Virus record (IMG/VR): IMGVR_UViG_3300042476_000679
Location: 1 to 61,005 of that record
Length of the DNA stretch: 61,005 bases
Source: a virus
Lineage: Duplodnaviria; Caudoviricetes
Reading direction: 5' to 3' (one strand)
The notes below the pieces were generated by a model. That model did no database searches and was not told the origin of the DNA. It was given only the letters and a program-made list of their open reading frames with translations. A program made the position numbers and the translations under genes. Shown here piece by piece: positions 30,153-60,376 of the stretch. The number at the start of each line of letters is the position of its first letter. Position 1 is the first letter of the stretch.

Positions 30153-30168
30153 ATATTATATAATTAAA

Positions 30169-30855: not shown

Positions 30856-30871
30856 AGTTTAAACCATTTGA

Positions 30872-33625: not shown

Positions 33626-33641
33626 AATTATTCATGCTCCA

Positions 33642-35273
33642 TTAGTTAGGTACAGGACCTTCAGGCCCATAGTTATTGTCAGACCAAGAGTCTTCTCCGT
33701 ATTGATTTTCCTGGTCTTTTACTTCTGGAGGAACTTCTTGTTCTTTAGCAACAAAAATAGCAAATGCGCCTATACGATCATCTGTTTCTCTAAAAGTACC
33801 CAAATCCGGATCACCTAAGCCTAATACTGGAACTCCATAATCAACCCACCCACCAGCATTAGTAGGATCAGAACTAAATATTTTTTCTTGAAATTTTTCT
33901 CCACGATAATAACAAATTTTTTCATTTAACTTGGTAAAAAACTGTTTACCATAATATGTTGTTCCAAGATTTTGAACAAATGCGTGTATCGCCTGTAAGT
34001 CATTAACTATTAAATCCGCCAGATTTTTTCCCTTAAATGGACCATTAATAACGTCGGCCAAAGCTTTATATCTAGTAATAGCATCTATATTTGGATCTTG
34101 CATTATTTCATTAAATACCCTACGCACACCCTCATCATCTAGATTATAGTTGAGTCTGACAGCTTCATTAAGGCCGCCTTTAATTTTATCATTGGCTACT
34201 CTCATAAACCATACGTCATAAGATGCCATAGCACCTCTAATATCGTGTTCGCTAATAGTAAATGGACCATTATTTGGTAGTGGTTTATTCAGTGTTAAAT
34301 TTAGTTCCTTAATGCGTTTTTTAATCCAAAAACCATAACATTCTGACCACGCATGAGGCACTATTGGTATAAACTCATTACCGTCCCATTCTTCTCCAAA
34401 GTAAAAATTGAACTTATTAACCGGTGAAAGATAGTGTTGTTTTTCTCCAAATAATAATGCTTTTGTTTTTTCATTACGCAACTCTTCACCATAACTTAAC
34501 TCTGTAGCAATACCATTAAAAATACCATCAGGACTAGAAATAGTCTCAAAGCTTTCAGGAGCTATTTTCATATCAATAGTACCAATTGTAATCACATTTC
34601 CAGACAATAACTTTACATAAAACTCTAATCCTAATACATTACATATATCTTGCAATAGTTGTAATATAGTAATACTTGGTCCGGGTACTCTATAATACTC
34701 TGGTACGTTTTGTGGAAAACTATTAAAATCAATAGTATAATTATATCCAGTTGGTGAACAGATAGTAGGATTCATTTGTTTGAGTTTATTCAGAATCATG
34801 AAGTATGGAGTACCTCGTTCTGTTGACCAAGAAGAACCAAATACTTGGCAGTTTCCATCTAGAATTTCTCTTTCATATGCTGCATAGATATTAAAATAGT
34901 TTGATGCCTGTACAGGATTACCTACATATGAATCTATAATTACGATAGCATTTTCTAAAAGCTGTCTGGGGTCTACAACTTTGACATTATAGGTTTTACC
35001 AGATCCTCCTTGTGTTTCTGTCCAATTAGTTAAAACTCCACCAAAATTAAAACAGTCGCTATAACCTTGGCTACTCATACAAGTAGAAAAATATACTGGA
35101 GCACCTACTTCAATAAGATTTTCTTTTGGTAAAAATAAATCTCCACTTTCACAGTCTTCTATCAAATCAACATTCAGACTACTTTCTTGTGCTGATCCTA
35201 ATCCTAAACTAGTATTAAATGATAATACCGTTGCACCTAGAAACTTAATTGGCTCTGTTATTATATCTGTCAT
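33642..35273 (-). CDS. Putative tail-tip hub (Tal-like) protein
   Basis: Position after the Dit-like pair. FGGVL...YNVKVVDPR and TILQLLQDICNVLGLEFYV resemble hub motifs. Confidence 0.55.
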   Translation of the reverse strand: MTDIITEPIKFLGATVLSFNTSLGLGSAQESSLNVDLIEDCESGDLFLPKENLIEVGAPVYFSTCMSSQGYSDCFNFGGVLTNWTETQGGSGKTYNVKVVDPRQLLENAIVIIDSYVGNPVQASNYFNIYAAYEREILDGNCQVFGSSWSTERGTPYFMILNKLKQMNPTICSPTGYNYTIDFNSFPQNVPEYYRVPGPSITILQLLQDICNVLGLEFYVKLLSGNVITIGTIDMKIAPESFETISSPDGIFNGIATELSYGEELRNEKTKALLFGEKQHYLSPVNKFNFYFGEEWDGNEFIPIVPHAWSECYGFWIKKRIKELNLTLNKPLPNNGPFTISEHDIRGAMASYDVWFMRVANDKIKGGLNEAVRLNYNLDDEGVRRVFNEIMQDPNIDAITRYKALADVINGPFKGKNLADLIVNDLQAIHAFVQNLGTTYYGKQFFTKLNEKICYYRGEKFQEKIFSSDPTNAGGWVDYGVPVLGLGDPDLGTFRETDDRIGAFAIFVAKEQEVPPEVKDQENQYGEDSWSDNNYGPEGPVPN

Positions 35274-35284
35274 ATTCCTTATCC

Positions 35285-37105
35285 TTAAATATCACATCCA
35301 GTACTACATATATACCCCAAATTAATAGTATAAGAACCATCAATTGGATTATTAGTATACTGTTTTTGTGTTAATATATAATCACCAACAGGTAGTCCTA
35401 TCGGGAAGTAACCTTCATCATAACAAGAATTACACTGTATTAATGATGGTAAATCAATACCAGATGGTTGTCCAATATCACTATTATCTGTACCTTGTAT
35501 AGTAATAGCCACACGTTTAGCTGTAAATGTACCTAATTCTTGTATAATCGGGCAAGAATTGCTATTTGGTATATTAAAAGTAGCAATTATTTTATTAGGG
35601 TTATTAGTTTGTATTGATATTTGTGCATATTTTTTACCACAAATATTATCACTATTATATTCAGCTGTATAGCCTATATTACCACCAACATAATCGTGTG
35701 TAAAATTTAATGATAGTGGGTGTGGTGGGTCTGGAACCTGATCATCAGGACTTGGAGAAACACCAAGAGCATCCATCGTAATACCCAAAACTGCTTTATA
35801 ATTTGTTTTTAGATCTTTTTTACCGGTGGTACCCATACCAGCATTATAGTCATTAGGATTATAAATTTTATCCAAAACTATTTTAGCATTATCATAAGCA
35901 CTTTGACTACTTCCATTAGATATTAGAATAGTACCAGTTTCTGGTAAGGTTAGCGGTCCTGGAACTCTAATTAAACCACCCTCAATCAAACCCTGAATTT
36001 TACCATTAAGTGAAATGGTAGTAGTTGTTTTGCCTTCTGGAGTGTTTGTTGTATTTATAGATTTACTGACGGTATGAACAGACGCATTATCAGACCAATT
36101 ATTATTACCAAGAGTTGTGCTAATAATAGCAGAATATGTTGCAGAAAATGAGCCCTCTGACTCTGAAACATCGCATGTTATTTTTTCATTATAGATTTTG
36201 TATATGGCATCACTTAGTGAAGACAATAGGCCATCCTCAAATCCTCCTGGTTCATGTAAATTATCTAGTCCATCAGTACTAAAACATCCAGAAGGGGGAT
36301 AGCTATTTTTTAAGACACTATTGATCAGATTTGTTACCTGATGATATAATCTGTATTGAACAAAATTTTTAGCTTGTTCCCATGCTGGTAATAATTTGGT
36401 ATTCTCGGAAGTGGAGCCGCCCTCGGTGTAAGTATAATAATTTTTGCCTACTGCATTAATATTATATTGTATATTAAAACTTACATTATTCAAATTTAGA
36501 TTGTTATTATTATCAATACTTTGTACTCTAGCATATGATTCATTTTCATTGAAGCTAAAAGACCAACTATCATTAAATGTTTTAACTTTAAACTTATTGA
36601 TATCTAGAATACCATCAGTACTGAAAGTAGAAGCATCTAAAAATGAAGCTCCGCAAGTATCTACTGCGGACATAAAATCAATAGAATTAAATTCAATAGA
36701 TGCTGTAAAATTAGCAAAATGATACCAATTATTATTAGATTCATTAAATTCTAAAGATCGTAATATTCCGCCTCTGGCCTTAAGAATATGAGCGTTACTA
36801 GCCCCATCAACAATTTGCAGCATATTACCATTTTGGCTTAAAATACGTCTTAATTTATGAATATGATCTGCTACAGAGCCCATACCGTATTCGCTAGGTT
36901 CCGGATATTCTTCTCCATAATCAGTATCTCTTAAGTCTAGACCTGTGACTACTCCATTGAAATTAATGACATAGGTATATCCAATAATAGTATCATTACT
37001 ATATTGAAATTCTGTACTGATAGAAATATCGGGACATGGTATTAATCTGTGGTCCGCATCTAATGATCCATAGTACATTTTAACATCTGGTGTATAAATT
37101 GCCAT
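35285..37105 (-). CDS. Putative distal-tail/tip protein, paralogue B
   Basis: Collinear similarity to 37108-38865. Second gene after the TMP. Confidence 0.55.
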   Translation of the reverse strand: MAIYTPDVKMYYGSLDADHRLIPCPDISISTEFQYSNDTIIGYTYVINFNGVVTGLDLRDTDYGEEYPEPSEYGMGSVADHIHKLRRILSQNGNMLQIVDGASNAHILKARGGILRSLEFNESNNNWYHFANFTASIEFNSIDFMSAVDTCGASFLDASTFSTDGILDINKFKVKTFNDSWSFSFNENESYARVQSIDNNNNLNLNNVSFNIQYNINAVGKNYYTYTEGGSTSENTKLLPAWEQAKNFVQYRLYHQVTNLINSVLKNSYPPSGCFSTDGLDNLHEPGGFEDGLLSSLSDAIYKIYNEKITCDVSESEGSFSATYSAIISTTLGNNNWSDNASVHTVSKSINTTNTPEGKTTTTISLNGKIQGLIEGGLIRVPGPLTLPETGTILISNGSSQSAYDNAKIVLDKIYNPNDYNAGMGTTGKKDLKTNYKAVLGITMDALGVSPSPDDQVPDPPHPLSLNFTHDYVGGNIGYTAEYNSDNICGKKYAQISIQTNNPNKIIATFNIPNSNSCPIIQELGTFTAKRVAITIQGTDNSDIGQPSGIDLPSLIQCNSCYDEGYFPIGLPVGDYILTQKQYTNNPIDGSYTINLGYICSTGCDI

Positions 37106-37107
37106 AA

Positions 37108-38865
37108 TTATCCTCTACATAAATATTCTAAAGATATGGTGAAAGATCCATCTATAGGATTGCTATCATAATCCTCTTTAGTTTTAATCCAGTTTATATT
37201 GTCATTAGATACCATCTGATCAAACTGTGCTATACTAAACTTAGGAATCGAGTCATTGCAAACATCAAGTTCAGATAATTCAATGCACTGTTTATTTTCT
37301 TTTGATCTGCCTTCTATATTTATAGATATTGTTCTTGATGTTTTCATATTTAACTTCTGAATAATCGGTCCAGATATTCTTCCTGGAACTATAAATTCTT
37401 GTATTATTTCTATAGGATCATTTCTTACTATACTAATATTCGTATAGCCTCTGTCTTTGATTTCATTCAAAGCTTTGTCATAAGTTACGTTATATGATAC
37501 TATACCATCATTATATGTGTGGTCCACATTGAACGCTGATGGTTTCGGTGGTAATCCATCATTATTTTTCACTAAAAGTGCTGCTTTAGTAATGCCCAGC
37601 GATGTTTTCATCGAGTCGTGTAAGTCGGATCCGCTAGAAACCTTTTTCTTAAAATAAGCTAATGCGTTAGAGTATTTTGTTTCATTACTATTTACTGTAG
37701 TTATAAATGTTCCATTATTAGGTAGAACAAAATCATTATTGTAGTATATAAAACCACCCCTAACCAATCCTTGAATATTTCCTTGTACCGATATTGAAGC
37801 TGATTGTGGCTGAGATCTAGTGTAGTTATCCGTGAGTGTAAAAGTGTGTACCGCCGCATTTTCTACTGGACTAAGAGCTGTATTATATCTTTTTAAAGTT
37901 GCATTATATGTTATACTAAAACTACCATCAGCTTCTGAAGTATCACAATCTATTGATTCATTATAAATATCATAATTTGGTAAACCATCTCTTAATGTCA
38001 CAAAACCATCTAAAATACCACTTTCTCTAGGACTTGTATTATCTACTTGATATAATCCGGACGGTACAATATCAGCAGCACATCCATCATTATTATTTGC
38101 TTTTATTTGTAATATACCTCCCATTAATCCCATAATTTGTTTATGTAATCTATTTTGTACAAAGTTCTTGGCTTGTTGCCATGCTGGTATTAAATTATCA
38201 TCAACATAATAGTTCTTTCCTGTGGCAGATAATGAGTAGGTGACTTTAAAAATATTATTGTAGTAATCATCATGGCTATTATATATTTGTTCATCAATTA
38301 CAAAAGACCACTTATCATTAAATTCTTTAATCTTATACTGCTTCATATCTATTAAGTGATCACTAACAATATGATTGCCGCTTTGGTTGGGAGTATGGAA
38401 CAAAGTACTAGCGCACGATATTTGATCATTCGCTACACAACCTATAAAATCAACTTCATTAAATTCTATTTCAATATTATATTGTGAATAATTTACCCAT
38501 CTATTTTCAGATGCATTCAGTGTGATATTTTTAATTGTGGCACCCTTGGCAACAATAATATCATCTGAGCCTTGTTTAATATATAGATTACCGCCATTAA
38601 AATTAAAAATTTCTCTAATATCACCCATATGCTCTATGGTTTTATCTGCACCATAGTCGGTTGAATTACTGTTTAAATCTTTTCTTAAGGCATTAGCATA
38701 ACCAGTAAGACTTATATTATATGTATATCCAACAACACTATCATTGGCATAATAAATTTCTGGACTGATATTGATAATAGGAGCAGGAGCTAGTCTATGC
38801 TCGTCTGCTGGAGATTCTGTTTGTTTACAATAATAAACTTTTATGGCAGATTCATATCCGGGCAT
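37108..38865 (-). CDS. Putative distal-tail/tip protein, paralogue A
   Basis: Immediately downstream of the TMP, beta-rich. Confidence 0.55.
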   Translation of the reverse strand: MPGYESAIKVYYCKQTESPADEHRLAPAPIINISPEIYYANDSVVGYTYNISLTGYANALRKDLNSNSTDYGADKTIEHMGDIREIFNFNGGNLYIKQGSDDIIVAKGATIKNITLNASENRWVNYSQYNIEIEFNEVDFIGCVANDQISCASTLFHTPNQSGNHIVSDHLIDMKQYKIKEFNDKWSFVIDEQIYNSHDDYYNNIFKVTYSLSATGKNYYVDDNLIPAWQQAKNFVQNRLHKQIMGLMGGILQIKANNNDGCAADIVPSGLYQVDNTSPRESGILDGFVTLRDGLPNYDIYNESIDCDTSEADGSFSITYNATLKRYNTALSPVENAAVHTFTLTDNYTRSQPQSASISVQGNIQGLVRGGFIYYNNDFVLPNNGTFITTVNSNETKYSNALAYFKKKVSSGSDLHDSMKTSLGITKAALLVKNNDGLPPKPSAFNVDHTYNDGIVSYNVTYDKALNEIKDRGYTNISIVRNDPIEIIQEFIVPGRISGPIIQKLNMKTSRTISINIEGRSKENKQCIELSELDVCNDSIPKFSIAQFDQMVSNDNINWIKTKEDYDSNPIDGSFTISLEYLCRG

Positions 38866-41800: not shown

Positions 41801-44800
41801 TGCTCGTGCTAATAATTGTTGTTTAGCTAATAATTCAGCATCTATTCTTAATTTTTCATTTCCTTCTTTAAGTGCGGCCGCTCTGTCTTTTTCAAGTTCT
41901 TTTTGTATTTGCTCGTCTGATGCTCCAGACTGTTTGCGTTTTTGCACATATGCATCTAGAGCAGCTCTTTCTGATTCTCTGGCTCTAATACCTTCTTTTT
42001 GTTTTTCTGTTAATCTACCATTTGCTTCAGCAGCTTTTATAGCACCGTCTTGATATGCTTTAACTAATGGATTTAATTCATTACTACCAGCCTTTAGACT
42101 ATCATATATTTTACCCAAATCTTCTGTAGAAGTTTGTTTCCCTTGTACTTCAGCAAACCTAGTAGCAGCCTTGATATTACCTTCAGATTGTCCTATTCTG
42201 GCTTTAAGAGCTTCTTGTTTATTGCCATAAACTCCATAAGCAGCATAACCACCAGCAGCGATACCTCCAATAGCCGCACCAATAGCTGTTCCAATCACTG
42301 GGATCATACTGCCAATTGCAGCTCCTGTAGCCGCTCCTGCCAAAGCTGTGCCACCAACATTAACAGCATTTTCTCCTGTCATATAAGAACCAAATGACAT
42401 TGATTCTAGCTCGTTTTGAGCAGTAAGTACTTCGCCAAATGCTTTTTGTGCATTAGCTAGATTAGACGATGTAAATGATGATTCAAGCTGTTTAAATGCG
42501 GTATCTAGATCTCCACTTGATTTAGCAATATTTTCTAATGCATTTGTAATAATAGCTTGATTTTTTGCATTGAAGAACCCTTGGATACCTCCAATAATTG
42601 CTCCACCAATACCACCTATTACTTCTCCAAATGGTAATCCTGATAGTAATTGAGCACCAGCCGCCGCGCCACTACCAGCTCCGCTTAGTGCTCCAAGTGC
42701 TCCTGCTGTATTAGGGTCTGCGGCCATAGACTTCGGTAATGCTTGCTTTAATACATTTGCGCCAATTGCTACTGATGCTCCTACTCCTCTAAATCCTCCG
42801 GCTTTAGCAAAAGTTTGACTTAATATTCCGCCCTTACCCTGAGCAAAATCTGTGGCACCACCAAGAGCTTGTCCTAGTTTTGTTCCTGCTGCTTTTTTGG
42901 CTAAATCAGGAGCCAACTGAGCAAAAAGCCCCATTCTTTGGCCTTCACGGCTTTGTATAAATTGTTGACGCTCAACCATTTTGGCGCCAGCGCCTTGGCC
43001 AAACTGCCTCCTTACCATCTCAATATCTTGATTTGTTTCTTTAGCAAAATTTTGCATGGAAATTTCCATTGCTTCTGCTGCCGTAATAGTTTCTCCAAGT
43101 TTATCTGATAAGGCTTGTTGTGCCGCCTCTAGATCTCCAGCCGCTAAAGCATCTGCTGCTGTTTTAGCTCCTGCGGCCAATTGATTCATACCTTCCTGAG
43201 TAGCAGCCAAATCTGGTCTCAAAGCGACCATTTGTTGTAGTATTCCTTCTTGTTCCATAGCTAATCTACTTTGAGCATCGGCGAGTCTCGTGGCTGCCGC
43301 TACTGCTTCTGCGGAACCCGCTGGTGCTGCTGCAAGCTGTGCCTCTGCTTCTTTTATAGATCCGCCAATTTTCATAGCGGTATCTCTTCTCGTTGCTAAA
43401 CTAGCTTGTGTTTCTGTTAATTTACCACGATAAAATTCTTTATTTTGAAAAGAAGCTTTACCTAGTTGTTGTGCTTGAGCTAATTTAACTGCTTGAACTG
43501 AGGTACCTTGTTGTTCTGCCTTATATCTATAGTATTGTTCATCTGCAAATGCTTGTTGTCTTTTCTTTTTGGCGTCAGGATCCTCTGGACCCATACCAAA
43601 TGGTGAAGTTTTGGCCTGTTCTCTTTGTAAATCTGCTGCTTGTTTAGCATCATAAAATGGATCTGTAGCTCTTGCTTTATCACTACGAAATTGTGCAACT
43701 TGAGCTTTTTTCTGTTCTGCTATTTGTTCTGGTACAGCCGCTTGTTTTTGTGCTACCTCTGTTTTGAGTCCGGATTCTAGAGACTGTTTAGCATCGGCTA
43801 CCGCTGCTCTATACTCTGCTATAACAGCAGATACATCTCCACCCTCACTTTTTACTTGTTTATATCGTTCACTATAAAAAGCTTTGAGACTCTGGCTTTC
43901 TTCATTATATAATTGTTGATATTTTGCTTTAGCCTCTTTAGCTACAACCGCCATAGCTGATTGAATTTGAGTATCAAAAGCTTTGGTATCAGTAGCTTTT
44001 CTTTCTTCAATTTGTGGAGTTTGTCGGCCGACAACATAATCTTGTACAGCTTTTTGAGATGCTGCTTTAGATTCCGCTGTAAGAGTTTCTTTAGCTTGTG
44101 ATTTTTTAAGAATACGCGCACTAATTATATTAGTAAATATATCGTTTAATTCATCACTACTAATTTTCCCTTCAAAAAATTCTTGAGATGCCTGCTCTTC
44201 TAAATTATTATAGAACTCATCTATTTTTTGTTTTTGTTCTTTATATAGTTTTCTATAGTTGGATATAACCTCTGCTTCTATTTTTGCAATATTTTCGGCG
44301 CCTTGTGGCCTAGCCATCACATCTCTTTTTCTACTTGCACCAGCACCAAAGTCAGGTCTTGGCGCTCCTACCGCACGAGCTTCTTCTCGTGTTATATCAC
44401 CACGAGATCGTGCAGTATAAGCTTCTTTTCTTCTTTTTCGTTCTTCTTTACTTAAGCGTCCTACATTACCACCATCCTCAAATCTTTGAATACCACCAAC
44501 AACACCACCTTTGTTATACCCTTTCACACCAATTTTATCTGCTTGATTAAGTTTATGTAATCTACTATAACCAATACGTTTAGCAGCGTTTTTATTAACA
44601 ACAAATTCTCCAGGAGTTAATAGTGCTGGGACAGTATCTTGTACTGATCCCCCAATAGCAAATTTAGCAAAATAATTCCTAAAGTTAGCTCTTGCTTTAC
44701 TAAGACCTCCCTTTACATCTCTTTTTACTTCTGTGGGAATAGCTGGATCAATACCAAATAAACTGGCTGCACTACCCAAACCAGAGGCATAGTCTACAGA

Positions 44801-47752
44801 TCTATCGTCTAGTCTACCAGGATTAGCACCGGCTTTCGCTAAAATAGCTTCAATCATATATCCTTCTAAATTGCCCAAACCCAAAGCTTCTTTTGTAGGA
44901 TCGTCCAGTGATAGTGGAGATCTACCATACAAGGCTTGTGTACCACGACCTAATGCTTCGTCGATTTCTTGTCTAATACGATAGATTTCTTCTGCTTTTG
45001 ACTTGGGTAATGATTTAGTATTAATTTCTAATATTCGTCCAGCAATATCTTCATAATGCTTAGTGTCAATATCAAATGGAAACATTCCAACCAATCCAAC
45101 TTTTGTAGCACTAGCTTTTTCTTCTTCTGTAAATATTCTAGCTCTCTTTTTTGTACTCTCAGCAACTTCTAATAATCCTTCTATTGCAGATAAGTAAGGT
45201 CCTGATCTATTACTTAATAAGAAGTTTTTACTAAATATTTCTTTACTCGTTACAGGCTTACCAGTACTACTTATAGAACCTAAGACTTGATTTATACGAT
45301 CGTTTCCACCAACTAATCCTCTTACAGTTTGTGCAGTTCCTAATTCTGTTACCCATTCATAAATTTCTTCTGCTGTCAGTGGCTCTGCTGTGCCACCTTC
45401 CTTAAATTTTTGTACTAGTCCACCCAAAGAGAGTTTACTAAATTTGCTTAAACTTTTTGGATAATATGTGTATATTCTTTTATTAGGACGATATAATCCA
45501 GCTCCAATTAATTTTGCTAACATGGTTTCATTATTGTTTCCTTTTATAAAACCAGTTTCTTGATCTCTAGCATATCCTTCATCTGGTCTTAAAAATTTAG
45601 CCTCCCCTGGTTTACTAGGATAGTCTAAAAATTTATTACCACCAGCTATGGATAATCCATATTTTTTACCAACAGCAATTTCAAAATTTTTCCAATTGGG
45701 TATAGTAGGAGATTTTTGTTTACGTCTCCTCATATCTTTCAAAATATCATTATCATCAACTGGTATTGGTTGAATATTTGCTGCATATTTTTGATTATTG
45801 TCTACAATACCAGATAATGATCTATAAGTATTTTTTAATTTTTTACCAGTTAATTCTACTTTACCACCAAGAGCATATTTATTTATTTGATGTAGATTTC
45901 CAGCACCAAGTTTTTCAACAGCTTTCTTTCGTATAACAAATTCTCCTGGCATTAATTTTGCTGGCACAGTATCTCTGTTTCCACTTCCCGGCACAAGACC
46001 ACCGCGAGCAAAACCCATAACTTTGCCACCACCATTGAGTGTTGTTGCTCCTCTAGATCTGATAGTATTTTCTAAAGAATTTACTGTACTAGTTAATCCT
46101 CTCAAAGCATCAGTATTAAGTCTTATGGCATCAGCAGCTTTAGCTGTCGCTTCACTAGTTTGTTTTTCTTTAGCGCCACTAAGGCTTTCTCCTATATTTT
46201 TACCTGTGGCACCAGCACCACCACCTTTTGTGATACCACCAAAAAATCCTGTTCCAAATTCGCCCAAAGCTTTAACACCCTTAATTGTAGCTAAAATAGC
46301 TAAAAATGGTAGAATGGGCTTAAAAGCACTCGCCAAACTAATAAATGCGCTAGTTAATCCTAAGACAATCGTAGTGATCGCTTTAAAGGTTGTACTCTGT
46401 CCTATGTCTCTAAAAAGTGCTAAAAACTGTTCGCGCACTTTCGCTATTTGATTTGCTAAACTTTTCTGAGCAGTAAGTTGGGCATCTGTGAGGCTAGACT
46501 GACCCGTTTGTGCAACCTTAAGGGCCTTCTGTGCTTCTGCAAATTGTTGAATCAATGGAATAACTTTACCAATTTGTCGAAATCCACCAAGTTCTTCTAC
46601 TATTTGTGTAAATCTTAAGTCTCTAGGATCTAACTGCTTTAATCCCTCGCTTAATCTTCTAGTAGCTTCATATGGACCAACGAATTTCCCTTCTAAGTCT
46701 GTAAGAACAACACCATATTCTTTTAAGGCTTCAATAGTTCCTTTACGTTGAATTCTGGTAAAAATAGTTCTTAATCCAGTAGCAATGGTCTCTGCGCTTT
46801 CACGAGTAGTAGCACGAACACTAGTAAATACAGAAATAAATTCATTTAGCGCATCTTTACCCTCACTAACGCCCTTACTAGCTGAAGCAAACACACCACC
46901 GGTTCGTTGAATAGCAACGATAATATCTCGTGATTCTACAGCGAATGCCGCAGCAACAGCATTAATACTACCTAGTGCTGCCTCTAAATCTTTAGCTTGC
47001 AAACCAAACTGTCTAAGTGCTGCAATTGCACCTTCTGTGGTATCTGTCAAATTATCGAATGATGGTGCCAATTCTGTCTTAGCTAAAGCCGCTAGTGCTA
47101 TACGGGTTTCCTCAGCATTTAAACCAGCCTGAGCAAGGGTACTAGCAACAGTTGTCAAGCTTTCACTACTCACACCTAAACTAGTAGCTAGATTAGTAAT
47201 TTGGGCTTGTAGTTGCTTTAAACCAATTTCGCTTTTACCGGTAACTTGTTGTAGTTTAACTAATTCTCTATCGAAAGTTACAAAAGAAGTAAACGCACTG
47301 TTAATAGCATTGATAACTTTAAAAACCACATTTGTAACAACGCTAAAAGCAGCAAAACGCCTAATTGCTAATGCGCCCTGTTTGCCAAACTCTTGCATTT
47401 CTGTTGTGGCTTGTTTAATATTTTTACTAATAGCCTGAGCATTAGCTGCTGTATTTGTCATTGATACAGATACTTTATTATTAACAGAACCGGCGTTATT
47501 TAAGGTACCAGATAGTTGTTGCATCGCTTTATTTAATGTGATAGTATTGTCTCTAGCCGCAGCCAAAACAGCATTCATAGACTTTAATTTTGCAGAAACG
47601 GAGTCTATGGATCTTGCTGATTGAGCATTAAGTTTAACATCTACATTTGCACTAACTGTACCCAACTCTCGCCTAATTTGTGCCACAACAGGCTTAAGGT
47701 TTGATGGGCCTTGTAAGTTAATTTGTGCTGTTAGATTAAAACCTTTGGCCAT
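38876..47752 (-). CDS. Tail tape measure protein (TP901-like core) with internal cargo domains
   Basis: 2958 aa, Ala/Gln-rich and helical. TP901-type core (FDREL..LQQVTG, LAQAG, ESAETIATGLRTIFTRI), hydrophobic segments, FAxGG..DTVPA.L.PGEFV modules. Lies between the chaperones and the tip genes. Confidence 0.92.
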   Translation of the reverse strand: MAKGFNLTAQINLQGPSNLKPVVAQIRRELGTVSANVDVKLNAQSARSIDSVSAKLKSMNAVLAAARDNTITLNKAMQQLSGTLNNAGSVNNKVSVSMTNTAANAQAISKNIKQATTEMQEFGKQGALAIRRFAAFSVVTNVVFKVINAINSAFTSFVTFDRELVKLQQVTGKSEIGLKQLQAQITNLATSLGVSSESLTTVASTLAQAGLNAEETRIALAALAKTELAPSFDNLTDTTEGAIAALRQFGLQAKDLEAALGSINAVAAAFAVESRDIIVAIQRTGGVFASASKGVSEGKDALNEFISVFTSVRATTRESAETIATGLRTIFTRIQRKGTIEALKEYGVVLTDLEGKFVGPYEATRRLSEGLKQLDPRDLRFTQIVEELGGFRQIGKVIPLIQQFAEAQKALKVAQTGQSSLTDAQLTAQKSLANQIAKVREQFLALFRDIGQSTTFKAITTIVLGLTSAFISLASAFKPILPFLAILATIKGVKALGEFGTGFFGGITKGGGAGATGKNIGESLSGAKEKQTSEATAKAADAIRLNTDALRGLTSTVNSLENTIRSRGATTLNGGGKVMGFARGGLVPGSGNRDTVPAKLMPGEFVIRKKAVEKLGAGNLHQINKYALGGKVELTGKKLKNTYRSLSGIVDNNQKYAANIQPIPVDDNDILKDMRRRKQKSPTIPNWKNFEIAVGKKYGLSIAGGNKFLDYPSKPGEAKFLRPDEGYARDQETGFIKGNNNETMLAKLIGAGLYRPNKRIYTYYPKSLSKFSKLSLGGLVQKFKEGGTAEPLTAEEIYEWVTELGTAQTVRGLVGGNDRINQVLGSISSTGKPVTSKEIFSKNFLLSNRSGPYLSAIEGLLEVAESTKKRARIFTEEEKASATKVGLVGMFPFDIDTKHYEDIAGRILEINTKSLPKSKAEEIYRIRQEIDEALGRGTQALYGRSPLSLDDPTKEALGLGNLEGYMIEAILAKAGANPGRLDDRSVDYASGLGSAASLFGIDPAIPTEVKRDVKGGLSKARANFRNYFAKFAIGGSVQDTVPALLTPGEFVVNKNAAKRIGYSRLHKLNQADKIGVKGYNKGGVVGGIQRFEDGGNVGRLSKEERKRRKEAYTARSRGDITREEARAVGAPRPDFGAGASRKRDVMARPQGAENIAKIEAEVISNYRKLYKEQKQKIDEFYNNLEEQASQEFFEGKISSDELNDIFTNIISARILKKSQAKETLTAESKAASQKAVQDYVVGRQTPQIEERKATDTKAFDTQIQSAMAVVAKEAKAKYQQLYNEESQSLKAFYSERYKQVKSEGGDVSAVIAEYRAAVADAKQSLESGLKTEVAQKQAAVPEQIAEQKKAQVAQFRSDKARATDPFYDAKQAADLQREQAKTSPFGMGPEDPDAKKKRQQAFADEQYYRYKAEQQGTSVQAVKLAQAQQLGKASFQNKEFYRGKLTETQASLATRRDTAMKIGGSIKEAEAQLAAAPAGSAEAVAAATRLADAQSRLAMEQEGILQQMVALRPDLAATQEGMNQLAAGAKTAADALAAGDLEAAQQALSDKLGETITAAEAMEISMQNFAKETNQDIEMVRRQFGQGAGAKMVERQQFIQSREGQRMGLFAQLAPDLAKKAAGTKLGQALGGATDFAQGKGGILSQTFAKAGGFRGVGASVAIGANVLKQALPKSMAADPNTAGALGALSGAGSGAAAGAQLLSGLPFGEVIGGIGGAIIGGIQGFFNAKNQAIITNALENIAKSSGDLDTAFKQLESSFTSSNLANAQKAFGEVLTAQNELESMSFGSYMTGENAVNVGGTALAGAATGAAIGSMIPVIGTAIGAAIGGIAAGGYAAYGVYGNKQEALKARIGQSEGNIKAATRFAEVQGKQTSTEDLGKIYDSLKAGSNELNPLVKAYQDGAIKAAEANGRLTEKQKEGIRARESERAALDAYVQKRKQSGASDEQIQKELEKDRAAALKEGNEKLRIDAELLAKQQLLARATKEVALATESLLDVYRRVTAKAQRFSDEIGDMLNINQATINSLSGKSEVSKVDRRGAERVLGNISAYSPQEVQAATQEMVGKLGGGTEAQALGKQAEAAKFLQDKLPAMLRAPDADAGKIMDTLRSQFQGMGLNSDAINQMLKDVEVQLGADREGGLGTLASEIEKGGIDQISSTAQEALKTMQNLAKTYNDALQQSIDLQNQYNESIMQADEYLRKAGSIRLTAELDLARALGRSPTLRELNQPFDFEIKDLTKRLIPGGTTDPTEIANGIIAATRQNTQLEAANVALGTTGMQGAVGANSGAELLKEQQANIAAIGANNVAINQSRQALERLANDGTKAANALSKIQEEQQALEGFAAFAQNVFTAEPQQLAKMEIEAAALNAAQAAGPEFMQSRFNRQQAFAGLEQAKGFLTPQEFKDIQADLTRKSFEAQGFKGGDVVKKIGGKEFTLDQLIERMKGGVSELDPNVVAYREAVDTQIKANEELKRLEEIKSLQIQEAMTGLVTFLANEFPRILAEAVKESRADAATQPETGAAPTEAQKNQAAANKKYEEAGKKKQQIDAKIATEEKKLKEAESKVGWEQGASTEVARRKRKIRELQEQSDQEQKNMDEAKSEFVASSSTVAEEEKTRQEAKAAQAAEEKKAREAKATEAKKQSEAARMGNRPTVIQAPPAPGTAAATVTRPQTQANTQPQTYGTTVSSVPMVSLDTLERSRADKQAEIIKKEKTLKAAKIAAYAAGTTETSPTLAAAQASFDSAKQDLASINEQITVEKQRLAAIEQQAAIAQQSQQQQSEQLNPYASGDAQLSAQMSSGVDPNHPFVQRLRQPETPQPVPVPSNLPQPVEYTRQVQTAETGGTAVNVTNGEATNTMTTGQLLTLDPASLKGLNDFNTTFGSYVDKLVGFQFPVIPDKIELNHNVQIDMTGAASITTLEKRLQELAVALVMPKIEELRNETSAATEGRVKGSGAKGVSK

Positions 47753-47836: not shown

Positions 47837-48709
47837 TCAGGATGAACTTGGATTGTCTTTAACTTCTTCTGGTTGTTGAGCATCACTCTTTGTTTCCTTA
47901 ATTGATTCTGATTCATTCAAAATAATTGGCTTACCATTTTCATCTAAGAATGGGGAAAATTCTACTATGTAATCTCCAGACTGATCAACTAAATTGCCAT
48001 TTTTATCAATAAATTCTCCTTTATCATTGATAAATCTGCCATTTTCATCAACCAATCTTCCTTGCTCATCAACTAATTTACCTTCTTTATTAATTAAACG
48101 TAACTTACTATCAACAAATTTATACTGTTTTAGAAACTTATTCTCTGGTAATTTTTCTTCATAATTATCGTCCAAACCATATAGCATATTAGCCAAATTT
48201 TGAGCAGCTAAAATTGCTATGGGATCTGATGATCTGTTGTTATAGTCCTCATAACTCTTAAAATACTGCTCTTTAGTATCATTATACACCGTGCATGCTG
48301 AAACTAAATAATTAAATCTAGCATTATCGGCTTGACCTTCTGCGGTATGTGTATCAAGATTCGTTTTAACAGCTATTAGCTCTCTAATATCTTCTCTGGT
48401 TTTTTTCATTTTTAGTGCTAGTTCTTTAGCCGCCAATAATGAAATTCCACCCTTGGCCAGTTGACGTTCACCATCTAAAATTTCAGACTGTAATTCTGTA
48501 AATTTAGCCTGTTTAATATTATCCCATAAACCCTGTTCTACTAAAAGATCATCTAATTTGGCCCTTACAACAGCTTTAGCTTTAAGAGCTTCGCTGAAGC
48601 TTTGATTATATACCTTGGTAGCTTCTTTTTGATCATGTAAAGATGGTGATCTGACTATGAATTCTTTTTCTTTGCCATCCACAAACCCTTTAAATACTTT
48701 AGTTTTCAT
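47837..48709 (-). CDS. Putative tail assembly chaperone
   Basis: Directly upstream of the TMP, helical, with C-terminal 7-aa DxxG repeats. Confidence 0.55.
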   Translation of the reverse strand: MKTKVFKGFVDGKEKEFIVRSPSLHDQKEATKVYNQSFSEALKAKAVVRAKLDDLLVEQGLWDNIKQAKFTELQSEILDGERQLAKGGISLLAAKELALKMKKTREDIRELIAVKTNLDTHTAEGQADNARFNYLVSACTVYNDTKEQYFKSYEDYNNRSSDPIAILAAQNLANMLYGLDDNYEEKLPENKFLKQYKFVDSKLRLINKEGKLVDEQGRLVDENGRFINDKGEFIDKNGNLVDQSGDYIVEFSPFLDENGKPIILNESESIKETKSDAQQPEEVKDNPSSS

Positions 48710-48992
48710 ATGAGTCCTCTCTGTTATTATAGAATTTATACTTGTATTTAATGTTGCCTTGATTTTTAGATAAATCAGATATAGCTTTTCTTAATTGATT
48801 ATTACCATTATTAAGTATTTGATTTCTTACCAAATCCCAGCGATCTAGAAAATCTAATTCTCTATCTGTTAATTCTTTTTCATCCTTTTCGTGTCCCCAC
48901 AAATAACCAAAAGCTTTCTCAAATTCAAATAATGCCCCAATCATGGTTGTTTGAAATCTTTTAGTCAAAATAATCTTACTATCATTATCCAT
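48699..48992 (-). CDS. Hypothetical protein
   Basis: 97-aa ORF between the chaperone-like genes. Confidence 0.65.
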   Translation of the reverse strand: MDNDSKIILTKRFQTTMIGALFEFEKAFGYLWGHEKDEKELTDRELDFLDRWDLVRNQILNNGNNQLRKAISDLSKNQGNIKYKYKFYNNREDSYEN

Positions 48993-48994
48993 AA

Positions 48995-50059
48995 TTATTT
49001 CCTATTTTTAAATTGCTGATTAGCTTGAATCGTTAATTCTCTTTGCATATCAGGCAAATGAGAAACATCCACAATATCATTAGCTCTATTAATAACAGAT
49101 TCTCTTTCTTTTATGATATGTCTAGAAGTAGCATCATTCAAGTCATAAATATTTTGCGCTTCTTCTTTAGAATTTGCCATTATGAATATCTCTCCTGCTT
49201 TATTTAAATTTTTACCCTCTAACATTTTTTCTGTTCTATTCTTATTTCTATTCTTTTCATTATCTCTTCTTTGTAATATCATCCATCCATCAAACATATC
49301 ATCATCTTCAAATACTTTGTCTGGAGGACATTCAGGATGCTGATATGCACTATCGTACATTTTGGTTAATACTACCAGCGTTTTCTGCTCGTCTGTCCAA
49401 TTAACAACTGACTTATCAAATAAATTTTCACTATTAGAACTCCAATAATTTTTCCATATATCACTGCGAGCAATTTGTCTAAAAATATTTATATCTATAT
49501 TATGTTCAGATATGCTATTAGACAACGTCATTAAAAAATTATAATCAGCATCTTCTATACTATTAAATACCCTATGATTAACATCATTATATAAACTATA
49601 AATTAAAATATATTGATTTTTTAAAAATTGACTGTATCCATTAATAGTATACTGATCTAAAGAATGTCTTATATTATACTGTCTATTATAGGCATTTCTA
49701 GTATTATTAAGTGTGCGTCTTAGAGTTTTAAGCTTATTAGGATTCAAGAAATTATTATAGATATCTACTTTCAAATCATCTATTTGTTTTTCTAAATTTT
49801 TAAGATTATCATCTCCATTATAAGTCCATATTCCCATACTAACTAGACTATCTACTATAGAGTCTTCATTAATCCATTCATTATATTTATTATTTTCGTA
49901 CTCCTGTTCAGCATACAACTCAGCTTCGTACTTGATAGTAATATCTGGATATACTAGCTTATATCTAGTATTGTTATAAAGAAATAAATAAAATCCAGAT
50001 AGTATGCGTGATAGATATATATTTAGACTACGATTATCCATTATCCTTGCAATTTCCAC
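48995..50059 (-). CDS. Putative tail assembly chaperone (distant paralogue of 47837-48709)
   Basis: Follows the tail tube. Shares L.xxG(I/L)W and LD.xT..G motifs with 47837-48709. The start may be ATG 50041. Confidence 0.5.
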   Translation of the reverse strand: MEIARIMDNRSLNIYLSRILSGFYLFLYNNTRYKLVYPDITIKYEAELYAEQEYENNKYNEWINEDSIVDSLVSMGIWTYNGDDNLKNLEKQIDDLKVDIYNNFLNPNKLKTLRRTLNNTRNAYNRQYNIRHSLDQYTINGYSQFLKNQYILIYSLYNDVNHRVFNSIEDADYNFLMTLSNSISEHNIDINIFRQIARSDIWKNYWSSNSENLFDKSVVNWTDEQKTLVVLTKMYDSAYQHPECPPDKVFEDDDMFDGWMILQRRDNEKNRNKNRTEKMLEGKNLNKAGEIFIMANSKEEAQNIYDLNDATSRHIIKERESVINRANDIVDVSHLPDMQRELTIQANQQFKNRK

Positions 50060-50074
50060 AATCTTATGCTGCTA

Positions 50075-50100
50075 CCAACCTAGTAATATTACTAGGCTGG
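50075..50100. other. Palindrome overlapping the tail-tube stop codon
   Basis: Perfect 18-bp CCTAGTAATATTACTAGG (50079-50096), extendable to 26 nt. Confidence 0.7.
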
Positions 50101-51207
50101 AGTATAGGTGCTACCCGACAATTGAGCATAGAACAGACCACCGCTATGAGCAACTACGAAATCGTTGAATGTTGAGTAACTATATGTTACACTAACATTA
50201 CCACCACCAGTGTCACCACCAGTATAGTTAACACTAGTAAGTTTATTCTTGGTGCCAAGATAAATTCTGGTGCCTTCGCAAGTCTCTAAGAAGATGGTTT
50301 GATCTAGTAGGTTATGACGAGCCACGCAACCAGTATCACTAACAGTAGCGGGTGTGTTGCCACTGAGACCAACATAGTAACCACTTTCTGTGGCATTAAT
50401 ACCGTCGCCGCTAACAGCAACAACTTCGAACTCACTAGTAACTTCCACTGGGAATGTTACATAGCGATGATAAGGAGCTAGTGTGCCAAGTTCTTGAATA
50501 GCTTCACGACCAAAATCGCAGCTTACTGTGATGTTTTGGAAATGTGCAGCGTGTCCACTACCATTACCGATTAGTGCGTTTACACCACTAACTGTAATAC
50601 CAGGGATTTGACTTGGGAAGCGAGAAGTACCCATATTTAGATATTGTCTACGGCCAACGCCAGTTGTTGATAGTGGAGCATCATCATTTCCATTAAATGC
50701 ACCAGTCTGAGTACCAGCCCAAACCTTGTTATTACCAACAAGTGTTACATCTTCTGTAAAGTTACCATCAACCGGGAATGTATAACTAACACTACTAACA
50801 TACATACCAGAGCACGTAACAGCATGGAAAGAATTGCCACTAGATGTTACATTAGTATCACTAAAAATAGCGAGCTGCATATCGCAACGAGCATTTTGAC
50901 GGCCAGGAATTGTGGGATTAGCGGCGGTTAAACCAGTAGCAATACTACTGCCAGTTTCTGTTGCTAAGGTATAAATAAGAGGATAGCCATCGAGCACTTT
51001 ATTGAGAGCAACTTCCACATCTGGCACATTTTCAACGTTTTGATAGATGGCCAATTGACCCATTTCAAATACTTGTTCTAGATTAAAATTAGTTGTGATA
51101 CCAACTGTTTGTAGACCATGTATAGGAAATTTGTTAACATTAAGAGTACCAGCAGCTGGGCCTAGAACTACTTGTTGAATTGCGTAGTAAATACGATTAT
51201 TGGCCAT
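50092..51207 (-). CDS. Major tail (tube) protein
   Basis: MANNRIYY start, Gly/Thr/Val beta-rich, GLQTVGITTNFNLEQVFEMG, internally duplicated pattern (EQVFEMG / EAIQELG), strong SD GGAG, upstream of the chaperones and TMP. Confidence 0.75.
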   Translation of the reverse strand: MANNRIYYAIQQVVLGPAAGTLNVNKFPIHGLQTVGITTNFNLEQVFEMGQLAIYQNVENVPDVEVALNKVLDGYPLIYTLATETGSSIATGLTAANPTIPGRQNARCDMQLAIFSDTNVTSSGNSFHAVTCSGMYVSSVSYTFPVDGNFTEDVTLVGNNKVWAGTQTGAFNGNDDAPLSTTGVGRRQYLNMGTSRFPSQIPGITVSGVNALIGNGSGHAAHFQNITVSCDFGREAIQELGTLAPYHRYVTFPVEVTSEFEVVAVSGDGINATESGYYVGLSGNTPATVSDTGCVARHNLLDQTIFLETCEGTRIYLGTKNKLTSVNYTGGDTGGGNVSVTYSYSTFNDFVVAHSGGLFYAQLSGSTYTPA

Positions 51208-51294
51208 AATGAATCTCCACTATATAGTGTATTGTACGGTAATGAGTAAAAAATGTTCTATCTCTTTTATAGAGATACACAAAAAACTAGTAAA

Positions 51295-52248
51295 TCATGT
51301 TGAAATTATTTCTAATGTAGCTCTTGCCATGCCTTGATGAAGATTAGGATGAGGTGAGTCTATTTCAAAAAGGCTAATATTTTTAATCAAACACTTACGC
51401 CAAGGATAATTGTTTACTAAATCTGGATACATTAATGAACTATTTTTAATATCTCCATTATAATCTAATGGAAAAGCCTCATTTTGTGCCACAGCATTAG
51501 TATCAAATAGTTGTAGTGTAATATCTTGTTGTAATCGTAATATATCTAATAGTTTATTTCTATCATTTTTATTTTCAGCCAGAATATAAAATCCTATATC
51601 TTGTTCTAGCCATAATAAGCTATTACCTATTTCGTATGGTCTTGATCGTGAACGAGATAATGGTTCTATTATTATGCACGGTAATTGTATTCTGTGTTGT
51701 CCTCCAATAGACCATTCTCCAGTGTCTGTAAGTTCGATATCTTTATTTGAGGTATTAAATGAGCTAAATTGTAAAATATTAAACCATGGACTTTCACTAG
51801 ATCTATGAACTTGCACAAATCTATAGCTATATTCAAGATCAACATCAGAGGATGAAGAAATTGGACTATTAAAAATTATACGACCCAACGGATGATTTAC
51901 TATAAAATTATTTGTCTTTGATACATATGAATTATTAACTGATACGCCACTGATAGCGATTGGGTTTGTAGAATTATAATCTACTCCGCTTTCCCACACC
52001 CAATCTTTTCGAATGCCCTGCCAAACAGCGCCAGTGGGATAGGATGGATCTTCTACAAGAACAAGACGGGCATGTTGGTTGACTCCATATAATGTATTAT
52101 CATTATTATAAACATCAAACCATGCTCCTATGTGTAAAAATGACCAATCAAAATACATTTTAAAATTAGCTTCTAAAATATTCAATAGTAAATCTTCAGA
52201 TATGCTATTGATACCTTTGAACCTGGTGTTTGGATCACAATTACTCAT
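51295..52248 (-). CDS. Putative tail terminator/neck protein
   Basis: Directly upstream of the tail tube. LPCIIIE...RPYEIG. Confidence 0.5.
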   Translation of the reverse strand: MSNCDPNTRFKGINSISEDLLLNILEANFKMYFDWSFLHIGAWFDVYNNDNTLYGVNQHARLVLVEDPSYPTGAVWQGIRKDWVWESGVDYNSTNPIAISGVSVNNSYVSKTNNFIVNHPLGRIIFNSPISSSSDVDLEYSYRFVQVHRSSESPWFNILQFSSFNTSNKDIELTDTGEWSIGGQHRIQLPCIIIEPLSRSRSRPYEIGNSLLWLEQDIGFYILAENKNDRNKLLDILRLQQDITLQLFDTNAVAQNEAFPLDYNGDIKNSSLMYPDLVNNYPWRKCLIKNISLFEIDSPHPNLHQGMARATLEIIST

Positions 52249-52895
52249 TATTGAAATACCTTGTCTAATAATTCGTTAATCTGAGGTTCTGCATTGTCTA
52301 TGGCTCTAGTAATCCAATTATCTCTAATTGTACCAGCAAATTCTGATGGTACTCTCCAGGATTGAGTTGATTCTCTCATAACCGCATATCCAGTACGAGA
52401 AAATTTACTCGGCCCCAAAACGACCTGTTGTTTTTTGATGATTGTTTTATTGCCCTCTAATAATAACCATTCCAACCAAGGTAACTGATATCCTCTAAGA
52501 TTATCTACAACCAATGCTGCATCAGAAGACAATACATCATCAAAATTACTACGTATAATAGATACACTAAAAAATGCTTTAATTTTATTGGCGCTTATAG
52601 ACGGAGCGCTATACTCAATATCTAAATTATTGGCCCATATATCAATAATAGCAGCTAGTTTGGCTCCAGGATCAGGAACACCAAATTCATATTGTAACTG
52701 ACCACCAATTAAAGAACTATACTCTGGAGTACTTTGTATTATATTTTTAATAACAGATGGTAATGAATTTTTTATGCTATTTAAGGATTTTTTAAGATAT
52801 TTATCTAGTTCTGGAATTAATGCATTAAGAATATTTTGAGATATTTGTTGATCATTTTCTAATAGTTGTAGTTTAAAATTCATGGATGTTTCCAA
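52248..52895 (-). CDS. Putative tail completion (HK97 gp10-like) protein
   Basis: Position, plus WLEWLLLEG and C-terminal NWITRAI. Confidence 0.45.
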   Translation of the reverse strand: METSMNFKLQLLENDQQISQNILNALIPELDKYLKKSLNSIKNSLPSVIKNIIQSTPEYSSLIGGQLQYEFGVPDPGAKLAAIIDIWANNLDIEYSAPSISANKIKAFFSVSIIRSNFDDVLSSDAALVVDNLRGYQLPWLEWLLLEGNKTIIKKQQVVLGPSKFSRTGYAVMRESTQSWRVPSEFAGTIRDNWITRAIDNAEPQINELLDKVFQ

Positions 52896-53500
52896 TCTAG
52901 ATTAAAGTCATCAGAATGATGTGTTACTCCACCCCATACAGATGATACATTTCTATGTTCTACTAGACTAGGAGTATAATAATATATGGGTTTTCCTCTA
53001 GATAATCTTGTTAATCTAATGTCTTGCATGCCTTCTATACTATTCCAATATGTTATCGCCCACGATGCGGCTTCGCGCGACATAATATAAAACTGTGATC
53101 CGTATAGTCTAAGACAATCAGCTTTATACCAAAACATACCTTCTTCTTGAGAACATCTATTATTTTTAGGAGTGTATAAACTACCAAAATTCAAAATATT
53201 ATTCTTAATAGGATACCATGATATTAAATTATGAGCTATATGTTTATTAAATATTAAATCATCTTCCATAAATACTATCCATTGAGCATCTGTGTTCTGC
53301 AAAGCAATTTTTAGAGCATTATATGATGCAATAGTCTGTCTCTCTGTTTTTGACACCTCTGGATAAACTAATGGATGAAAACAATCCTTATCTAGGATAA
53401 CATTTATATCCCAAGCCCAATCAGTAGATTTTAAATCATTAAGCGTTTCATTCCTAATGCTTTCTCTACTATCACAACTGATCATTACTGCTGATATCAT
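52880..53500 (-). CDS. GT-A glycosyltransferase (GT25-like)
   Basis: VMISC..R, VFMEDD, GSQFYIMSR, PSLVEH. Confidence 0.7.
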   Translation of the reverse strand: MISAVMISCDSRESIRNETLNDLKSTDWAWDINVILDKDCFHPLVYPEVSKTERQTIASYNALKIALQNTDAQWIVFMEDDLIFNKHIAHNLISWYPIKNNILNFGSLYTPKNNRCSQEEGMFWYKADCLRLYGSQFYIMSREAASWAITYWNSIEGMQDIRLTRLSRGKPIYYYTPSLVEHRNVSSVWGGVTHHSDDFNLDWKHP

Positions 53501-53501
53501 T

Positions 53502-54821
53502 TTATATTCTTTCTACAACAATATCGCATTTTTCGAACGCTGTCCATTTGCCCAGAAATTTTTTATTGTCACCACTGTCTTTAGCAAAAAACATAGCTAT
53601 TTCAGAATCTTTATGGGCAGCGCCTATCACAACTATTGTTGGTATATTATCTATTAGTCTTACACTCCAGCGTCTTTCGCACTTAGCCTTACCTTGTCCT
53701 ATAATACCATTATCTAATAATTCTAATGTTCTACTGTCTAAATTAACTCGTTCATATCTATACTTACCTATAAATGTTTGAGCATATTGTTTTTCTTCAT
53801 TATTCATTTCATCCCACGAGTAGATAGTTCCACTCCAATATTGATCTCTTACATCCTTGGCTTCTTTAATTAAATGATGGTTGAGATGGTTGCCAGGTCC
53901 AGTACCACTAAACATAAGTTCTTTACCTTGACAAGCGTGTTGAAATACTAACGCTCCAGACAGATCGTACTGTAATATACAGGGATGTCTCCAACCAGCC
54001 CGTCTTGAAGGAATAGCATAATCAGATCCGCACTTTCTCCATGCTAAATGAAAAGTGGATTTGTCTCCATATACAAATTTATAAAACCAATCAGAATGTT
54101 CATTCATCCACATTGTTACACTAAGTTCTTTTAAACATTTTTCTTTATTGATCATATACTGACCGGTTTCGAAATCTGGCTCGTCTCTATAATCCAAACC
54201 AACATTTTCCCAACAAATTGGCGGCAACCATTCTTTTCTTTTGTTTGGCGGTAGATCTGGCCAAAATATAGCACCTAACTCTTTGTACTGAGAATAATCA
54301 AATAAGTATGTTGGATCTTTAGACGGAATATTATCAGCGTCTAAATATAAAACCTCTTTAAATGATGAATGTAGCGTTGATAATGCCTTTAGTTCCCAGC
54401 CATTGAGTATTCTAGGTTGGATATTATGTTCTTGACAATATTTAATTGCATTAATATAGCGTATACCGAACATATCGCACATATTTTTCATATTATTATC
54501 CATTTCATATTCATCTAAATACCAAAATTCTACAGGCAACTGACAACCTAATTTTCTTAAAATATAGAAACAGGCAAAGCCGCAACCAAAATATTTGGCT
54601 CCACCAGCACCTATAACTATTCCTCGTTCATGTTGATATGGCTGTATGGGAGAATATGTTTTTTCTAATAAATCATCTAATATTGATATGTGAGCTAATT
54701 GAACTTCTTTAAGTCCTGTCCAATTTTGAGGATATCCATTTGTTTTTCCAGAGTTTAATATTTCTATCCATCTATTAGTTTGTTTAAATAAATCAACTAA
54801 ATCTTTATGATTATTACTCAT
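53502..54821 (-). CDS. GT71 (Mnn2/Mnn5-like) alpha-mannosyltransferase-family protein
   Basis: RGIVIGAGG, LRKLGCQLPVEFW, K..S.LHSSFKEVLYLDADN, GAIFWPD, ETGQYMINK, YGDKSTF. Confidence 0.8.
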   Translation of the reverse strand: MSNNHKDLVDLFKQTNRWIEILNSGKTNGYPQNWTGLKEVQLAHISILDDLLEKTYSPIQPYQHERGIVIGAGGAKYFGCGFACFYILRKLGCQLPVEFWYLDEYEMDNNMKNMCDMFGIRYINAIKYCQEHNIQPRILNGWELKALSTLHSSFKEVLYLDADNIPSKDPTYLFDYSQYKELGAIFWPDLPPNKRKEWLPPICWENVGLDYRDEPDFETGQYMINKEKCLKELSVTMWMNEHSDWFYKFVYGDKSTFHLAWRKCGSDYAIPSRRAGWRHPCILQYDLSGALVFQHACQGKELMFSGTGPGNHLNHHLIKEAKDVRDQYWSGTIYSWDEMNNEEKQYAQTFIGKYRYERVNLDSRTLELLDNGIIGQGKAKCERRWSVRLIDNIPTIVVIGAAHKDSEIAMFFAKDSGDNKKFLGKWTAFEKCDIVVERI

Positions 54822-56262: not shown

Positions 56263-56274
56263 TACTTATACCCT

Positions 56275-57984: not shown

Positions 57985-57998
57985 TTTAACCTCTATTC

Positions 57999-60368: not shown

Positions 60369-60376
60369 ATTCTATC

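Follow-up and report, generated by a model that had tools for sequence, protein, structure and literature searches.

This study concerns a giant tape measure protein (TMP) encoded in a 61,005 b virus record from IMG/VR (completeness estimate 44%; the phage is uncultured), the whole length of which is referred to here as the window. The N-proximal third of this protein, judged by its motifs, contains an "insert bay" between two copies of a motif common with the C-terminal part of the phage lambda tape measure protein gpH, and this bay holds two conserved globular modules, named here d1 and d2. The interpretation that we favour, and whose chances we put at about even, is that these are DNA-acting modules of nuclease type embedded in the TMP, which would leave the tail together with it and act at genome entry. 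The positions of all features discussed are collected in Table 1.

As judged by its family matches, the gene product is a giant TMP of siphovirus type. It matches tail-length tape-measure families in PHROGs, with phrog_167 (E 9.9e-17) and phrog_4211 (E 1.8e-16) followed by five more down to 2.2e-10. The TP901-type TMP domain PF10145 remains below threshold in the window's own protein and was found in 11 of 13 relatives by direct Pfam scan, among them the close relatives P0002, P0009, P0012 and P0013. Over the N-terminal 574 amino acids (aa), eight listed close relatives, a comparison in which P0009 is not included, show 63-73% identity. An earlier note on this DNA had already named the host protein as a TMP, interrupted at aa 631-1030 (nt 44663-45862) by two globular segments with nuclease-like motifs (E691 to K719 and E968 to K1010), and the coordinates given there for the interval and for both motifs are exact. 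The interruption is also visible in the composition, since the fraction of Ala, Gln, Glu and Lys is 0.27-0.28 in the two bay segments as opposed to 0.42 in aa 1100-2958, and aromatic residues make up 0.105 of aa 631-773 as opposed to 0.047 of aa 1100-2958.

For the comparison with relatives, a word-indexed search with aa 560-1110 was used, in which 7998 candidates were scored and 1930 of them reached E<=0.001, and the best 120 of these 1930, with lengths of 1808-5146 aa and a precomputed PF10145 assignment for most, were scanned with hidden Markov models (HMMs) built from segments of the window protein. The module d1 is present in 36 of the 120. In all 36, the residues E691, D710 and K719 are retained, and position 717 is Glu in 29 and Asp in 7 sequences. 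The pairs F690-E691 and L709-D710 as well as P712 are likewise invariant, A718 is found in 35 of 36, and a conserved block follows downstream, in which G738, N739, T743 and K747 occur in all carriers and N740 in 33. The predicted model of d1 is globular, with a predicted local distance difference test score (pLDDT) of 86.0, and in model numbering E67 lies within the helix 62-73, D86 beside a bridge residue, and E93xK95 in or at the end of the strand 92-94. The structural neighbours of this model are nucleases of the restriction endonuclease (REase) fold, all at low Z (<=4.2). Judged by their titles, about 41 of 50 neighbours are PD-(D/E)xK nucleases. These include FAN1/VRR-NUC, R.BspD6I, N.BspD6I, DrdV, Ecl18kI, PspGI, NgoMIV, EcoRII, Bse634I, BstYI, SgrAI, NaeI, BsaWI, Hjc/Hje, NucS, phage and LHK exonucleases, the cap-snatching endonucleases of bunya- and arenaviruses, CdiA-CT toxins, Card1/Can1/Can2/NucC, YaeQ and DdmD, and the rest are five tRNA-splicing endonuclease subunits and four other or unknown proteins. 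Foldseek against the PDB gave no match for d1 at E<=0.001 (best 0.52), and the ESM Atlas gave no usable match (best 0.84; unnamed viral clusters). The model of d1 shows a restriction-endonuclease-like alpha/beta core, and its conserved residues occur in the same order E, D, (D/E)xK, predicted on helix, strand and strand, as in the PD-(D/E)xK superfamily (VRR-NUC/FAN1, Hjc, type II REases, CdiA-CT toxins). We consider it probable that d1 is a genuine, divergent domain of PD-(D/E)xK fold with a competent-looking site.

The second module comprises a helical bundle and an alpha/beta part, and was divided for the scans into d2a (aa 790-946) and d2b (aa 955-1028). Among the 89 relatives with d2b, D987 is invariant, E968 is found in 85 and K1010 in 82, and position 1008 is Glu in 66, Asp in 21 and Gln in 2; G991 (88), G993 (84), P1006 (88), T1007 (86) and R1011 (82) are conserved as well. 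The AlphaFold2 model, calculated from 27 sequences, is globular (pLDDT 89.8; predicted template modelling score 0.70) and has E186 in the helix 177-191, D205 beside a bridge residue and E226-x-K228 in the strand 225-230. The alpha/beta part of d2 has the ordered, conserved E, D and (D/E)xK residues of the PD-(D/E)xK superfamily in common with d1. In a profile comparison of d1 and d2b with hhalign, the FE...LD[YF]P segment aligns over 30 columns (E 0.0016, probability 16%), and a direct BLASTP comparison of d1 and d2 gave no match (E 1.6). The spacing from E to D is 19 in both modules; from D to the following acid it amounts to 7 (d1) and 21 (d2b).

By itself, the pattern E-x(10-30)-D-x(5-25)-[DE]-x-K does not exceed chance, with 34 matches in the TMP as opposed to 25 ± 7 in 200 shuffles. 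Both sites are regarded as real because they are conserved among relatives, together with the fold, and not because of this pattern; a nearly invariant Lys together with an interchange of Glu and Asp at the acid of (D/E)xK is the classical PD-(D/E)xK signature. The earlier note had expected such conserved residues and a PD-(D/E)xK fold in both segments. The conservation, including the interchange typical of the family, was found in both, and the fold holds for d1 with its REase-fold neighbours, whereas for d2 the REase fold was recovered by none of four structure searches. Foldseek against the PDB returned no match for d2 at E<=0.001 (best 0.10) and the BFVD search none (best 0.033), the VIA neighbour list was filled by matches of the helical sub-domain, which weakly resembles helix-turn-helix (HTH) DNA-binding bundles in the structure searches, and for the alpha/beta part a second structure search returned GTPases only and the ESM Atlas no usable match. 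Three strands and a long helix precede the helix that carries E968, and only one helix follows the ExK residues, an order of elements for which the nuclease assignment would need a permuted or truncated core. Alternatively, the alpha/beta part may have a different fold, such as a P-loop-less GTPase-like or a flavodoxin-like sandwich, and its E/D/ExK likeness to d1 would then be convergent or coincidental. We rate this as rather unlikely, as no Walker-A-type motif is seen in the conserved columns, the E-to-D spacing equals that of d1, and the two profiles give an alignment that is weak yet not random; d2 as a GTPase was rejected, no Walker-A-type motif being seen. The conservation, the placement of the residues in the model and the profile alignment with d1 are suggestive of a nuclease in d2, not conclusive, and we assign d2 to the PD-(D/E)xK fold tentatively, at somewhat less than an even chance.

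If d1 and d2 are DNA-acting modules, the bay would consist of a divergent PD-(D/E)xK domain (aa 632-771) and of a second module (aa 788-1033) that possibly joins an HTH-like bundle to the alpha/beta part. Both would most likely act on nucleic acids, by metal-dependent cleavage or at least by metal-dependent DNA binding; they would exit the tail together with the TMP and act where the genome enters, with host DNA or the leading end of the phage DNA as target. This interpretation builds, among other points, on the predicted placement of the motif residues in both models, which lie on the expected types of element, namely a helix, a position beside a beta-bridge, and a strand or strand end.

Several points weigh against it. 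The placement was judged at the level of secondary structure, and K1010 is replaced by Thr in 7 and E968 by Gln in 4 of the 89 sequences. Pfam, PHROGs, NCBIfam and PADLOC contain no family over aa 631-1030, nor over the same modules in the relatives L003, L004 and P0121. Furthermore, a folded domain of 15-28 kDa, present in three to six copies, is hard to fit into the narrow lumen of a tail tube, so that d1 and d2 may be in an unfolded state in the virion. Finally, the interpretation presupposes that some part of the N-proximal third of a TMP reaches DNA.

The main rival to a DNA-acting role is a structural one, in which the modules would be non-catalytic, a degenerate scaffold of REase fold and its neighbour serving TMP oligomerisation, docking to chaperone or tail tube, or the capture of the phage DNA end without cleavage, and the conserved acidic and Lys residues would bind either a metal of structural function or a partner. 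It is consistent with the restriction of the modules to TMPs and with their constant relative position, d1 following immediately after the first motif copy in 35 of 36 carriers, and with the fact that d2b is the best-conserved part of the bay, with 85-95% identity among the eight listed close relatives as opposed to the 63-73% of the N-terminus. However, the complete E/D/(D/E)xK set with its interchange of Glu and Asp and its invariant Lys speaks for catalysis, and many relatives lack one of the modules or, in 13 of 120 cases, both, so that tail assembly requires neither of them. We regard a purely structural role as possible, but on the unlikely side.

The distribution of the modules bears on a further question, namely whether they belong to a general pool of toxin cassettes. 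An exhaustive HMMER search with d1 against 1.84 billion cluster representatives gave matches in 22 proteins at E<=0.001 (19 of them at <=1e-10 and 11 at <=1e-30), all of 1260-3777 aa, of which 21 are TMP-like. The remaining one, P0127, is a 1455-aa tandem-repeat protein of RTX type, whose E-value of 8e-10 is due to nine weak repeat matches and which was judged to be a repeat-driven false positive. When the search was limited to proteins of 85-273 aa, d1 had a single match, a TARA protein of 241 aa, probably a fragment, and d2 had no match among 1149 candidates of 139-443 aa. Scanning IMG/VR with aa 631-1030 returned 4 loci only. In 50,697 records of cultured phages, a tblastn search with aa 551-1110 matched 103 records, all of them only at the end carrying the first motif copy (aa 551-666), and in none was at least 80% of the query covered. 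Both modules thus appear to be TMP-specific, as they are found inside giant TMPs only and not as free-standing proteins.

The earlier note had likened the modules to polymorphic toxin cargo, and effectors of this type, drawn from the general cassette pool, would serve competitor killing or host takeover. The varying content of the bay and the presence there, in two relatives, of a toxin-type ADP-ribosyltransferase domain would fit such an origin. However, d1 and d2 were found neither in toxin systems nor free-standing, and no sharing among delivery systems was seen for them. This TMP-only distribution argues against the analogy with promiscuous toxin cassettes, not against an enzymatic role. 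In addition, no immunity-like gene is evident, the neighbours, including the downstream gene at 37108-38865, being without a family in general scans, which were not aimed at immunity genes. We consider a toxin-cassette origin very improbable. Even less credible, in our view, is that the modules are envelope-degrading enzymes (lytic transglycosylase, muramidase or peptidase), the usual cargo of TMPs: peptidoglycan hydrolase motifs in other TMPs offer a precedent only, Pfam and NCBIfam gave no hydrolase match, and the structural neighbours include neither a lysozyme nor a peptidase.

The frame in which d1 and d2 are set is itself a family feature. The motif that bounds the bay, with its first and second copies named here rep1 and rep2, occurs in all 120 relatives according to the HMM. 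Residues ~566-655, which span rep1, align to residues 718-806 of lambda gpH (8iyk_H, E 0.0023); in a phmmer search against the PDB sequences, this motif was the only part to give a match. Lambda gpH has one copy of the motif near its C-terminus, whereas the giant TMPs have 2-8 copies along the protein. According to PMC12617516, gpH is cut in a Gly-rich zone close to its C-terminus into gpH* (about residues 1-710) and a C-terminal piece, residues ~690-817 are not resolved, and gpI in the tip is bound by residues 818-849; the counterpart of the rep motif (~706-821) therefore lies just past the zone of processing from gpH to gpH*.

Between rep1 and rep2, the 120 proteins have 138 to 1883 aa (median 695) of changing module content, in agreement with the variability that the earlier note had expected for this interval, while the modules themselves are well conserved. 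The HMMs detected d1 in 36, d2a in 71 and d2b in 89 proteins, in the combinations d2a+d2b (54), d1 only (19), d1+d2a+d2b (16), d2b only (16), none (13) and other (2). The window protein represents a minimal arrangement, in which d1 and d2 fill the interval. In two relatives, the interval contains an ADP-ribosyltransferase domain (PF03496, ADPrib_exo_Tox; Pfam cut-off 23.4 bits), in P0031 at aa 1303-1513 (26.8 bits) and in P0046 at aa 971-1102 (27.2 bits); enzyme-type modules therefore do occupy the bay. Single-linkage clustering of 207 unassigned bay segments gave no further resolution, as 169 fell into one cluster. Short Gly-rich linkers of the type GGxVQKFxxGG were observed at module boundaries (aa 776-787 and 1080-1098; nt ~45392-45427 and ~44459-44515), also in the family consensus, and may be module joints. 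Since the rep motif occurs in 2-8 copies that bracket exchangeable modules, one may speculate that it marks processing or anchoring points. Giant TMPs would then be polyprotein-like delivery vehicles, in which the inter-rep bays are exchangeable for enzymes (a TMP-specific PD-(D/E)xK nuclease, an HTH plus alpha/beta module, ADP-ribosyltransferases) that are freed from the tape measure and injected before the genome as effectors of host takeover or anti-defence. This wider scheme we regard as improbable as it stands.

TMPs are known to measure tail length, to form a conduit across the envelope and sometimes to carry cell-wall hydrolases. Those of mycobacteriophage TM4 and Staphylococcus aureus phage phiIPLA35, among others, reportedly contain peptidoglycan hydrolase motifs. 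They resemble the window TMP in having a globular enzyme-type module within a helical TMP, presumed to be active during tail ejection; unlike them, the window TMP has a nuclease-like and not a muralytic insert, and two or more modules in a bay bounded by gpH-like repeats. Enzymes that are packaged in the virion and injected are represented by the T4 ADP-ribosyltransferase Alt and the N4 virion RNA polymerase. The concept of an enzyme brought in with the phage DNA, and in P0031 and P0046 also the presence of an ADP-ribosyltransferase domain, is what these have in common with the TMPs described here, but they are packaged in the head, whereas the enzyme-type domain here lies within the tape measure polypeptide of the tail. 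TMPs with embedded enzyme domains, namely peptidoglycan hydrolases, are already known. Among the titles and abstracts returned by searches of the open-access literature, none reports a PD-(D/E)xK (restriction-endonuclease-fold) domain embedded in a TMP, and in the searched text of Zhang et al. 2012 (PMC3482391) the term "tape measure" occurs 0 times.

If the modules do act on DNA, the phage protein that is first to enter the cell would gain a nucleic-acid-directed activity. This would bear on the protection of genome entry, or on an attack on host DNA, at time zero, on the organisation of very long TMPs, and on what is met by TMP-sensing defences such as the membrane nuclease SNIPE (10.1101/2025.11.03.685801). 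Both d1 and d2 are well-defined, small and expressible domains with clear point-mutant controls; on the other hand, the phage has not been cultured, and the likeness in structure is weak.

Table 1. Features of the tape measure protein and its insert bay in the window (HMM, hidden Markov model; ORF, open reading frame).
Feature	Position (nt)	Strand	Basis or remark
TMP gene (P0001), 2958 aa	38876..47752	(-)	single ORF
rep1 motif (aa 575-630), a Gly-rich stretch followed by DTVPAxLxPGEFV and the residues after it	45863..46030	(-)	HMM
d1, PD-(D/E)xK nuclease-like domain (aa 632-771)	45440..45859	(-)	conservation, model
d1 motif E691 ... D710 ... E717-A-K719	45596..45682	(-)	conservation
d2 N-terminal helical bundle (aa 788-872)	45137..45391	(-)	model residues 6-90
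d2 alpha/beta part (aa 875-1033), includes d2b (aa 955-1028)	44654..45130	(-)	model residues 93-251
d2 motif E968 ... D987 ... E1008-V-K1010-R1011	44723..44851	(-)	conservation
rep2 motif (aa 1026-1083), second copy of the gpH-like motif	44504..44677	(-)	hmmsearch
Glycine-zipper-like hydrophobic stretch (aa 1803-1856)	42185..42346	(-)	weak DUF1269 match, E 0.0085, under cut-off

Outside the bay, the glycine-zipper-like stretch of the TMP has parallels in the relatives P0011 and P0027, where glycine-zipper Pfam matches reach E-values of 2.5e-5 to 3.1e-4, slightly under the curated cut-offs. A PvdO match in the family-library scans (E 0.045) was dismissed as being at chance level.

The TMP gene sits in a block of large ORFs on the same strand. 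None of the 18 large minus-strand ORFs around it (29253-38865 and 47837-60961; TMP excluded) has a structural assignment in PHROGs or Pfam. Sixteen have no PHROG match at E<=1e-5, and those at 30169-30855 and 57999-60368 match only phrog_15511, a family of unknown function. Among them, Pfam confidently matches only one, the gene of a putative mannosyltransferase at 53502-54821 (-) (PF11051, E 2.6e-33). In essence, the virion module cannot be annotated by sequence; the replication genes of the window are recognisable. Directly upstream of the TMP gene, the ORFs at 47837-48709 and 48699-48992 (-) share 11 nt, the second lying in the +1 frame of the first; the position just upstream of the TMP gene is the usual site of tail-assembly-chaperone frameshift pairs.

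On the plus strand, a PolIII-alpha-like DNA polymerase (phrog_405) is divided between two ORFs that cover the profile positions 42-615 and 610-1063, with a gene resembling a polymerase exonuclease subunit (phrog_192) between them; the three ORFs lie at 11564-13450, 13606-14292 and 14285-15913 (+). Two genes similar to HNH or homing endonucleases are located within the replication module, at 3063-3644 and 19795-20589 (+). In addition, the window has three glycosyltransferase-like genes, at 16423-18078 (+), 25378-26652 (+) and 53502-54821 (-), which match phrog_2170, phrog_24687 and PF11051; one of these genes lies in the structural block.

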